A DNA stretch of 45,712 nt from Candidatus Micrarchaeota archaeon (lineage in GTDB: Archaea; Micrarchaeota; Micrarchaeia; Anstonellales; Bilamarchaeaceae). Both the position numbers and the translations under genes were made by a program. Positions 18,184 to 44,514 of this stretch are shown piece by piece. Below the pieces are notes generated by a model. The model made no database searches, had not been told where the DNA came from, and saw nothing but the letters and a program-made list of their open reading frames with translations. The stretch is from the NCBI GenBank assembly GCA_043821365.1, contig JBDRCX010000001.1:1-45712 (forward strand). The letters are read 5' to 3'. How positions within the stretch are numbered: the stretch's first letter is position 1; the number at the start of each line of letters is the position of its first letter.

Positions 18184-18437
18184 CGCTGAGGGCAGGATTT
18201 TCCGCGCCTTCTAGTAAAAGGTGCTCCAAAATGGCTTGTTGATTTTGCTCCGCAAAATGCGAAAACATTTCCATCAACCCAATTTTTGGAGCGCTTTTTT
18301 TCAAAAAGCGCTTTTGAACCTGCGATCCACGAGGGACACGCTTTCGGGCTTTTGGTAAAAAGCAGTTCCAGGCGTGCGCACTACCAGGTTTCGCGCCCTG
18401 CACGAAAACATCAGTCAGGACTTTATGCGACCTCAGC
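18184..18437 (-). tRNA. tRNA-Ser(GGA) with three introns (D-loop ~14/15, canonical 37/38, T-loop 59/60)
   Basis: Removing 18423-18390 (34 nt), 18365-18343 (23 nt) and 18312-18198 (115 nt) gives an 82-nt cloverleaf: GCTGAGG/CCTCAGC acceptor, G73, CACGC-CTGGAAA-GCGTG anticodon arm, long variable arm, GCAGG-TTCAAAT-CCTGC T arm. CCA not encoded. Confidence 0.9.
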
Positions 18438-18565
18438 AATGAACGATAGTGAATTGATGAGGGCCATTAGCAGCAGCCAATCAGACCTCAACTCATATGA
18501 GTTAAGTAAGTGGTTACCTAGGTTTTTAATAATTCCCAGTAAACTAAAATGGGAGGCGTTTATAT

Positions 18566-21421: not shown

Positions 21422-21616
21422 TGCGACTGCCGGGAATTGAACCCGGCCCGCGAGCTTATTCCGATCGAGCCTTTTGGAAAAGGCTCGACCCAAAACCGAT
21501 ATTCCAAAACCCGTGAGAGTTTTAAATTGGTTTTTTGCGCCGCTTTTTTACTAAAAAAGCGGATGGGAAGCTCGAATCATACCGTTGTCCGTAAATTTAC
21601 AATAGACTACAGTCGC
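21422..21616 (-). tRNA. tRNA-Gly(CCC) with two introns (D-loop ~15/16, 17 nt; canonical 37/38, 107 nt)
   Basis: Removing 21601-21585 and 21563-21457 gives 71 nt: GCGACTG/CAGTCGC acceptor, A73, CGAGC-TTCCCAA-GCTCG, CCGGG-TTCAATT-CCCGG. BHB central helices TTCC/GGAA and GTCT/GGAC. Confidence 0.92.
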
Positions 21617-21707
21617 ATTCTGATGCGATGTCCATTGGCAATAGGACAGTCGCACAGCATACAAAACATGCAAGAGATTTTTTAAAGTTTAAGATAATTA
21701 TATTAGC

Positions 21708-44420: not shown

Positions 44421-44514
44421 TTGATGAAAGTGATCTTGAGTTCTGAATGAGTTTACGAACGAAGAACTCGAGAGATTTGAACGGTTCGTCGTTCAAACAG
44501 ATCTTGAGTTCTGA
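44421..44514 (+). ncRNA. Candidate box C/D-like guide RNA with duplicated guide sequence
   Basis: TTGATGA 44421-44427; GATCTTGAGTT+CTGA at 44432-44446 and again at 44500-44514; UUCG hairpin 44476-44497. Confidence 0.55.

Follow-up and report, generated by a model that had tools for sequence, protein, structure and literature searches.

The window, a 45,712-nt stretch of contig JBDRCX010000001.1 from a Candidatus Micrarchaeota archaeon (assembly GCA_043821365.1), carries on its minus strand a tRNA-Ser(GGA) gene with three introns, located in the D-loop, at 37/38, and in the T-loop (positions 18184 to 18437). Its first base is G 18437, opening the sequence GCTGAGGTC, and its last base is G73 at 18184. 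ARAGORN and Rfam, the latter in both gathering and E-value modes, found no tRNA in the window; the Ser and Gly genes were read by hand, and the Ser exons match the Ser genes of relatives. The leader of this gene, in minus-strand order, runs GTTGAGGTC, TG, ATTGGC, TGCT, GCTAAT, GG, CCCTCA (18463-18458), and TCA. Its outermost element (18484 to 18492), here termed the stub, is a copy of the start of the gene, with 8/9 identity to tRNA bases 1 to 9. The stub is followed by a central 6-bp hairpin, ATTGGC-TGCT-GCTAAT (18466 to 18481; arms 18481-18476 and 18471-18466), and then by CCTCATC (18456 to 18462), an inverted copy that pairs with stub bases 1 to 7 in the MFE fold, with a U.U mismatch at 2:71. 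An 18-nt spacer, AATTCACTATCGTTCATT (18438 to 18455), which includes the recurrent family motif TCACnnnCGTTC, connects the inverted copy to the gene, and a TATA-like box, TTATTAAAAA (18523 to 18532), a putative promoter element, is centered about 35 nt ahead of the stub.

A repeat search recovered the direct repeat of the Ser leader as 7 exact bases at a spacing of 55, and its hairpin has a predicted energy of -14.6 kcal/mol (z, -3.25), equaled by 1 of 200 shuffled sequences. Together with a re-reading of the sequence, these results bear out the letters and the hairpin given for this leader in an earlier note on this DNA. The note had taken CCCTCA for a copy of the 3' acceptor strand of the tRNA; we find it better described as part of CCTCATC, the inverted copy of the upstream 9-mer, whose likeness to the tRNA 3' strand is inevitable in a sequence complementary to a 5' acceptor strand. 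Immediately ahead of the stub is a perfect 12-nt palindrome, ACTCATATGAGT (window positions 18501-18512, minus strand), and a longer fold of the leader, in which TGAGTTGA pairs with TCAATTCA of the spacer, gives an alternative leader structure.

The same architecture was said to lie ahead of a tRNA-Gly gene, and this holds. The tRNA-Gly(CCC) gene (21422 to 21616, minus strand), which has a D-loop intron and a 37/38 intron, was likewise read by hand, and its 5' exon matches Gly genes genus-wide. Its outer copy, TGCGACTGT (21646 to 21654), is identical to tRNA bases -1 to 8; the repeat search recovered the two copies (21654-21646 and 21617-21609) as 9 exact bases at a spacing of 37. Between the two copies, a 28-nt insert, CCTATTGCCAATGGACATCGCATCAGAA (21618 to 21645), comprises a hairpin, the inverted copy (GGACA, 21633-21629, and TCGCA, 21628-21624), and the spacer TCAGAA. 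A TATA-like box, TTTAAAAAA (21678 to 21686), lies 24 nt ahead of the stub. The hairpin has a predicted energy of -13.3 kcal/mol (z, -4.12), and none of 200 shuffled sequences was equally good. The insert is homologous to that of tRNA-Gly(TCC) on contig C2 of the same genome (C2:13886-14010, minus strand). The Gly(TCC) gene has a T-arm intron and its true end, CGACCGCA, lies at about 13886; owing to this intron, the 3' end of ARAGORN's 76-nt intron-less model of the gene is wrong.

The frequency of such arrangements was determined in 90 tRNA genes, of which 30 belong to the genome holding the window (G000; 1.2 Mb, 6 contigs, 36% GC, 87% complete) and 60 were detected with Rfam in five congeners. 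The gene list of G000 combines ARAGORN and Rfam hits with hand-found genes and holds about 35 of the expected ~46. A 5' copy was scored when the first 9 bases of a gene recurred, with at most one mismatch, 11 to 130 nt upstream of it, and the flanks of unrelated tRNAs served as the control. Such copies precede 17/90 genes, compared with 47/6996 (0.67%) in the control. Mirror-image copies, in which the last 10 bases of a gene recur downstream of it, were found at 11 of ~89 genes, compared with 14/7500 (0.19%). The observed rates thus exceed the controls at both gene ends, and the chance frequency that the earlier note had named as evidence against its proposal was not found. Besides the two leaders of the window, 5' modules in G000 precede Gly(TCC), Pro(CGG), a Met gene, a Glu-type gene, two Leu genes, and, more loosely, Pro(GGG). 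Among Ser genes of congeners, the number of tandem units ranges from one to three, and two 60-nt units are identical in one genome. In a genome of a related family of the same order (G031), 3' modules number 8 and 5' modules 3 among ~23 sampled genes; the sampled genes of a genome from another family (G029) have none. Genome-wide scans for repeats with inverted copies were too noisy to count modules away from tRNA genes (19628 matches versus 10615 in shuffled sequence, and 224 versus 52-90), yet they revealed additional cases. A pattern scan of public contigs for CTCATC N6-30 GCYGAGGTCGCAT was unspecific: the matches listed were mostly chance hits in high-GC bacteria and included one Micrarchaeota record.

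The modules follow one order. From the outside toward the gene, a direct copy of the gene end (7 to 20 nt) is followed by a hairpin whose sequence varies, an inverted copy, a spacer, and the intact gene; the inserts measure 26 to 105 bp and contain no open reading frame. At 3' ends the order is mirrored, running from the gene end through spacer, inverted copy, and hairpin to a copy of the last 7 to 20 bases. A T-run follows the outer copy in about half of the 3' modules. In 6 of the 11, a T-run already stands directly after the true 3' end, and those six modules may escape transcription. In each of two clear 3' modules of G000 (C6:369095-369160 and C6:684800-684900), the tRNA 3' end is followed by GAACGAAGTGA, then by an inverted copy and a hairpin, and finally by an 11- to 12-nt copy of the 3' end and a T-run. 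The motif of the Ser spacer, TCACnnnCGTTC, also occurs in the Pro(CGG) and Met modules and is reverse-complemented in 3' modules; in its general form, the spacer motif TCACTTCGTTC at 5' ends is the reverse complement of GAACGAAGTGA at 3' ends. The spacer sequences thus suggest a single double-stranded DNA layout used in two orientations, which explains the reversed motif where a single RNA motif does not.

Longer modules indicate what the inverted copy is a copy of. In tRNA-Leu, where the outer copy is 15 to 16 nt long, the inverted copy matches at 13/15 positions and includes D-arm bases, which are absent from the tRNA 3' end. In one tRNA-His, the inverted copy matches at 10/11 positions and extends over bases -3 to -1. 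Judged from the Leu and His sequences, the inverted copy mirrors the stub and not the 3' strand of the tRNA. The exact repeats begin 0 to 3 nt from the gene end in 22/24 cases, with the inner boundary at +5 to +14. None of the exact repeats was confined to the leader, though such a repeat would be harmless in principle. The event that forms a module therefore appears to be anchored by something at the gene or transcript end. After formation, the two copies have distinct fates: the inner copy stays intact and the stub decays, as in the Ser modules, where the stub carries C2 to T here and T8 to C in G015 and matches at 7/9 positions in G024. In some lineages both the outer and the inverted copies have decayed (Gly(TCC) of G024 and Leu of G000).

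Comparison with orthologs points to insertion. Neither Gly module of G000, at Gly(CCC) or at Gly(TCC), has a counterpart in the Gly genes retrieved from 18 congeners, with the exception of Gly(TCC) in G024, where a homologous module differs in its hairpin core and has an inverted copy that has decayed. Within G000 itself, Ser(TGA) is without a module. Other modules are older: the Ser and Leu modules are common to several species, and some modules predate speciation. CCTCATC is found again in the Ser modules of G015, G021, and G003. In the G015 ortholog on contig C34, the 18-nt spacer differs from that of the window at 1/18 bases, and the central hairpin is retained with a changed sequence. This conservation of the spacer and other parts across species, together with modules older than speciation, could mean a function.

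The position of the promoter in module-bearing genes is informative about both the origin and the expression of the modules. In 73 module-less tRNA genes, TATA-like words peak 29 to 32 nt before +1. In module-bearing genes, the corresponding peak lies at -32 to -29 from the stub, and there is none at that distance before the true +1. Similarly, 24 nt separate a conserved box of Gly(CCC), CTTTAAAAAA, from the stub in G000, and the same distance separates it from +1 in the G024 ortholog, which has no module. The promoter box thus keeps its normal distance to the outer copy, so the transcript should start at or just before it, and the hairpin module is most likely cotranscribed with the tRNA. The earlier note had considered that a transcription start downstream of the hairpin would speak against its reading; the promoter-like box, as far as sequence can place it, puts the start upstream. 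The same positions indicate that the module arose as an insertion or duplication at the DNA level, which would have left the old gene end beside the promoter.

We next consider how such transcripts are predicted to fold. In MFE folds, most stub bases are paired in 17/17 5' modules (7 to 11 per stub), and the fold z was below -2 in 22/28 modules. When transcripts are cut just past the true 5' strand, pairing between stub and insert is predicted to dominate in most modules; in the Ser leader of the window at nascent length, two alternatives are nearly equal (4.2 versus 4.6 expected pairs). Equilibrium folding was also predicted for seven full intron-less pre-tRNAs; in 5/7, it is the outer copy and not the true 5' strand that pairs with the 3' acceptor strand. 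Sequestration of the outer copy is thus not thermodynamically guaranteed: either the spare copy would be a real competitor held off solely by the order of folding, or the energy model is misleading for tRNA. An RNase P RNA is present in G000 (C6:111852-112172, plus strand), and ordinary leader removal is therefore available. It is very divergent, scoring 37.5 bits against the archaeal model, whose gathering score is 84; among genomes of the genus, the scores lie between about 32 and 107 bits.

The earlier note had tied the leaders to intron removal and asked for intron-containing genes to be compared with intron-less ones. This comparison, run on the 90 genes, showed no association: 5' modules occur at 10/47 intron-containing and 7/43 intron-less genes (Fisher P value, 0.60), and 3' modules at 5 intron-containing and 6 intron-less genes (P value, 0.75). 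Furthermore, the sampled tRNA genes of the module-rich related family are mostly 71 to 75 nt long and thus intron-less, yet modules abound there. The link to intron removal is therefore not supported, nor is that part of the note's proposal of a mechanism shared by the two leaders; what survives of the proposal is one architecture with one cause. The suggestion of an RNase P decoy fares similarly, as a role purely in the leader or with RNase P does not account for mirror-image 3' modules, the reversed spacer motif, and a module at a C/D-box-like small RNA. The note's third suggestion, the footprint of a process that inserts introns, fits insofar as a process inserts sequence, which it does at gene ends with duplication of the end and not at intron positions. 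No duplication of the gene-end type was found by eye around the introns of tRNA-Ser(GGA).

The C/D-box-like small RNA lies in the window at 44432-44514 (plus strand), and its 3' module belongs to the same family and has the same layout, with the motif CGAACGAAG. The sequence GATCTTGAGTTCTGA stands at 44432-44446 and again at 44500-44514, where a TTTT comes next. The stretch between the copies contains the motif ACGAACGAAG (44455-44464), the inverted copy AACTCGAGA (44465-44473), and the hairpin TTTGAACGG-TTCG-TCGTTCAAA (44476-44497). The module family thus occupies tRNA ends and at least one small RNA gene, in the host genus and in at least one related family. At two protein-gene starts of G000 (C6:787490-787570 and C6:588540-588610), a duplicate ribosome binding site and start codon, GGAGGGTTTTCAATG, precedes the gene, together with the complementary GGAAAACCCC and a conserved 21-codon upstream open reading frame (M..MMGMENP..). 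A leader peptide or a further gene-end module could account for this arrangement.

Collectively, these findings suggest that the Ser leader hairpin probably belongs to a family of short DNA modules at gene ends, which are inserted, cotranscribed, folded away, and trimmed off. The hairpin looks like an insertion scar, not an intron-removal device. According to this reading, an insertion or duplication in DNA would leave the old gene end beside the promoter at 5' ends or, in some cases, beside the T-run at 3' ends, and the inner copy would become the working gene end. The module would be transcribed together with the tRNA, and the inverted copy, once synthesized, would immediately draw the redundant outer copy into a hairpin, such that the outer copy could not compete for the acceptor stem. 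RNase P would then cut at the true +1, or 3' processing would act at the true end, and the module would be discarded. The module would on this account be tolerated rather than useful. For its source we can offer a guess: template switching during replication or repair, or an unknown mini-element mobilized in trans. Near-perfect inverted copies are too good to have been made by point mutation and are therefore probably a product of the generating process itself. They would result from template switching at a hairpin and also from the integration of a hairpin-folded single strand, which is known in other systems. The anchoring within 0 to 3 nt, with a variable inner boundary, is not predicted by random insertion and weighs against this reading, and neither a responsible enzyme nor a donor sequence was found. 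A one-step fold-back, in which the spacer would be the reverse complement of the old leader, was examined by eye in Gly(CCC), Gly(TCC), and His and is not supported, the only match being 5/6 in Gly(CCC).

A selected RNA device, in which an acceptor-like hairpin in the leader or trailer aids or regulates end processing, is in our view unlikely, although several observations speak for it. Such a hairpin might serve RNase P or tRNase Z as a docking site, compete for either enzyme, or be a temporary partner that prevents mispairing of the acceptor in long, intron-rich precursors. Retention of the hairpin structure through sequence change between orthologs, conservation of the spacer across species and tRNA types, and the Ser and Leu modules common to several species would all be expected of it, and the two pairings of the Ser leader are near in energy, as a switch requires. 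However, the modules are patchy among orthologs, being absent from the Gly genes of most congeners and from Ser(TGA) of G000, they show no association with introns, their copy number ranges from one to three, and the outer and inverted copies have decayed in some lineages. The reverse-complementation of the spacer motif at 3' ends, moreover, means that the RNA sequences at the two ends differ. We consider it very improbable that the modules are introns near the gene start, being born or dying, with the upstream copy as the true first exon and everything from the hairpin to the downstream copy spliced out. The genus is rich in noncanonical introns, pairing between the outer copy and the 3' strand is frequent at equilibrium, and the Ser leader can be drawn by hand as a full BHB (h, GTT/AAT; H, GAGG/CCTC; h', G-C plus ATTGGC/GCTAAT; bulges TC|T and AT|C). 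In contrast, a BHB could not be drawn for either Gly leader, where there is a 1-nt bulge, for His, where there is a symmetric 3x3 internal loop, or for most others, instead of the two staggered 3-nt bulges. Splicing of the Ser BHB would not be productive: stub base 9 would become linked to the spacer instead of base 10, giving no tRNA, and the downstream gene is already complete. Furthermore, the two required junctions are identical and not complementary, it is always the inner copy that is intact and the outer copy that drifts, and neither 3' mirror modules nor tandem arrays fit.

The modules might also be the scars of integrase-driven elements that were later almost wholly deleted, or REP/MITE copies spread by an HUH transposase, an origin that we regard as improbable. 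Direct repeats of tRNA ends bracketing foreign DNA are the classic mark of integration (PMC9897764; PMC3293823), and direct repeats of 7 to 20 nt are present at 28 gene ends. However, no tyrosine recombinase (PF00589) was found in the 87% complete assembly of G000, and inserts of 26 to 105 bp, lacking cargo and with one ordered layout, are unlike the outcome of random deletion. A single IS200/IS605-type Y1_Tnp gene is present in G000 (C3:96659-97006, plus strand; E value, 8e-31), as the transposase variant would have it. Among 25 genomes of the genus, it occurs only in G000, G007, and G018, and it was not found in six module-rich relatives (G015, G021, G024, G003, G011, and G031); we therefore reject the Y1 HUH transposase as the agent for want of co-occurrence with the modules. 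A classic MITE is likewise rejected, as each insert is unique in the genome: with blastn-short, 11 inserts searched against G000 returned self-hits only, save for a 28-nt leader hairpin common to two Leu genes. The variable repeat length, from 7 to 20, fits neither integrase nor REP, and the inverted copy of the target is left unaccounted for by both. Finally, the resemblance of the outer and inverted copies to the two acceptor strands of a mini-tRNA brings to mind a decayed tandem tRNA copy that has lost the bases between 9 and 66, which we hold to be scarcely tenable. Decay of this kind is excluded by the Leu inverted copy, which spans D-arm bases, by the His inverted copy, which spans -3 to -1, and by the spacer motif, which should have the same sense at 5' and 3' modules and is instead reverse-complemented; the hairpins are also unlike T-arms.

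If the modules are indeed insertion scars, the closest published kind of event is the duplication of a target at tRNA gene ends by kilobase elements with a recombinase, of which the modules are a variant. As with the attL/attR copies of integrating elements, an end repeat brackets the insert, the gene is rebuilt intact, and a spare copy is left beside it. Integrating elements, however, span kilobases and carry a recombinase, whereas the modules are 26 to 105 bp long and geneless, with no integrase found in G000; the modules also include a hairpin and an inverted copy of the target, are found at 5' and 3' gene ends alike, and can be tandem. To our knowledge, kilobase mobile elements with recombinases are the only published model for extra tRNA gene sequence in archaea. 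Short units that carry a copy of terminal tRNA bases and can be tandem are also seen in the tRNA-linked repeats of Escherichia coli tyrT/rtT, which end in that copy, measure about 180 bp, and are cotranscribed. These bacterial repeats are found downstream only; the archaeal modules differ in lying upstream as well and in having an inverted copy and a hairpin, a layout that we do not know to have been described for the E. coli repeats. Like REP elements and MITEs, the modules are small, noncoding, palindromic DNA spread through a genome, but, unlike REP/RAYT (Y1 HUH) elements or MITEs, their inserts are not near-identical, their repeat length is not fixed, and the transposase is present in 2/24 congeners.

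Among archaea, Caldiarchaeum subterraneum has a 5' fragment of tRNA-Thr at a distance of 1.8 kb upstream of the tRNA-Thr gene (Sugahara 2012, PMC3293823), and partial tRNA gene fragments have been catalogued (van der Gulik 2023, PMC9897764). Noncanonical BHB introns of tRNA genes, and the epsilon2 endonuclease, have been described in ARMAN-2 (Fujishima 2011, PMC3239211; reviewed in PMC4090602). The modules share with archaeal BHB introns the same organisms and genes, a hairpin insert with a segment complementary to exon bases just upstream, and hairpin types, such as TTGAAC..GTTCAA, that occur elsewhere in G000. They differ in lying outside the mature tRNA with a duplicate of the gene end, most lack a BHB, and splicing is neither needed nor productive. 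We found no literature on such leaders in ARMAN, Micrarchaeota, or DPANN, and the ARMAN papers do not mention them.

Modules stand at about 1/6 of tRNA gene ends in the genus and come and go between species. For the question of how archaeal tRNA genes gain introns, splits, and long leaders, they present a much smaller and frequent event. They would explain many odd "structured leaders" in DPANN genomes, and their decoy acceptor strands can mislead tRNA finders and RNA-folding predictions. A precise signature, consisting of the direct and inverted copies of the end, the hairpin, and the spacer motif, makes the process tractable, as metagenomes could catch filled and empty sites. We speculate, with considerable reservation, that an undescribed DNA-level process in DPANN targets the precise ends of small-RNA genes with high transcription, where it makes one direct and one inverted copy of the terminal 7 to 20 bases on either side of a new hairpin, with its anchor 0 to 3 nt from the mature or transcript end. 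This process might be a transcription-linked template switch or involve a hairpin-folded single-stranded intermediate; within genes, the same process could account for new archaeal tRNA introns, whose source has long been sought.

A structured element was also seen in the host genome. About 80 nt long and made up of three hairpins, it lies directly upstream of three tRNA genes (C3:26727-26810, C6:327210-327294, and C6:368800-368881), namely, Leu TAG, a second Leu, and a gene with the acceptor GCTGGGG (Pro according to ARAGORN). Its arms are GTCAAAATTTC..GAAATTTTAA, TACTTGAACGG..CCGTTCAAGA, and TTCGCGAAAAT..ATTTTCACGA, and a 54-nt tandem array of related units is found at C6:72440-72600.
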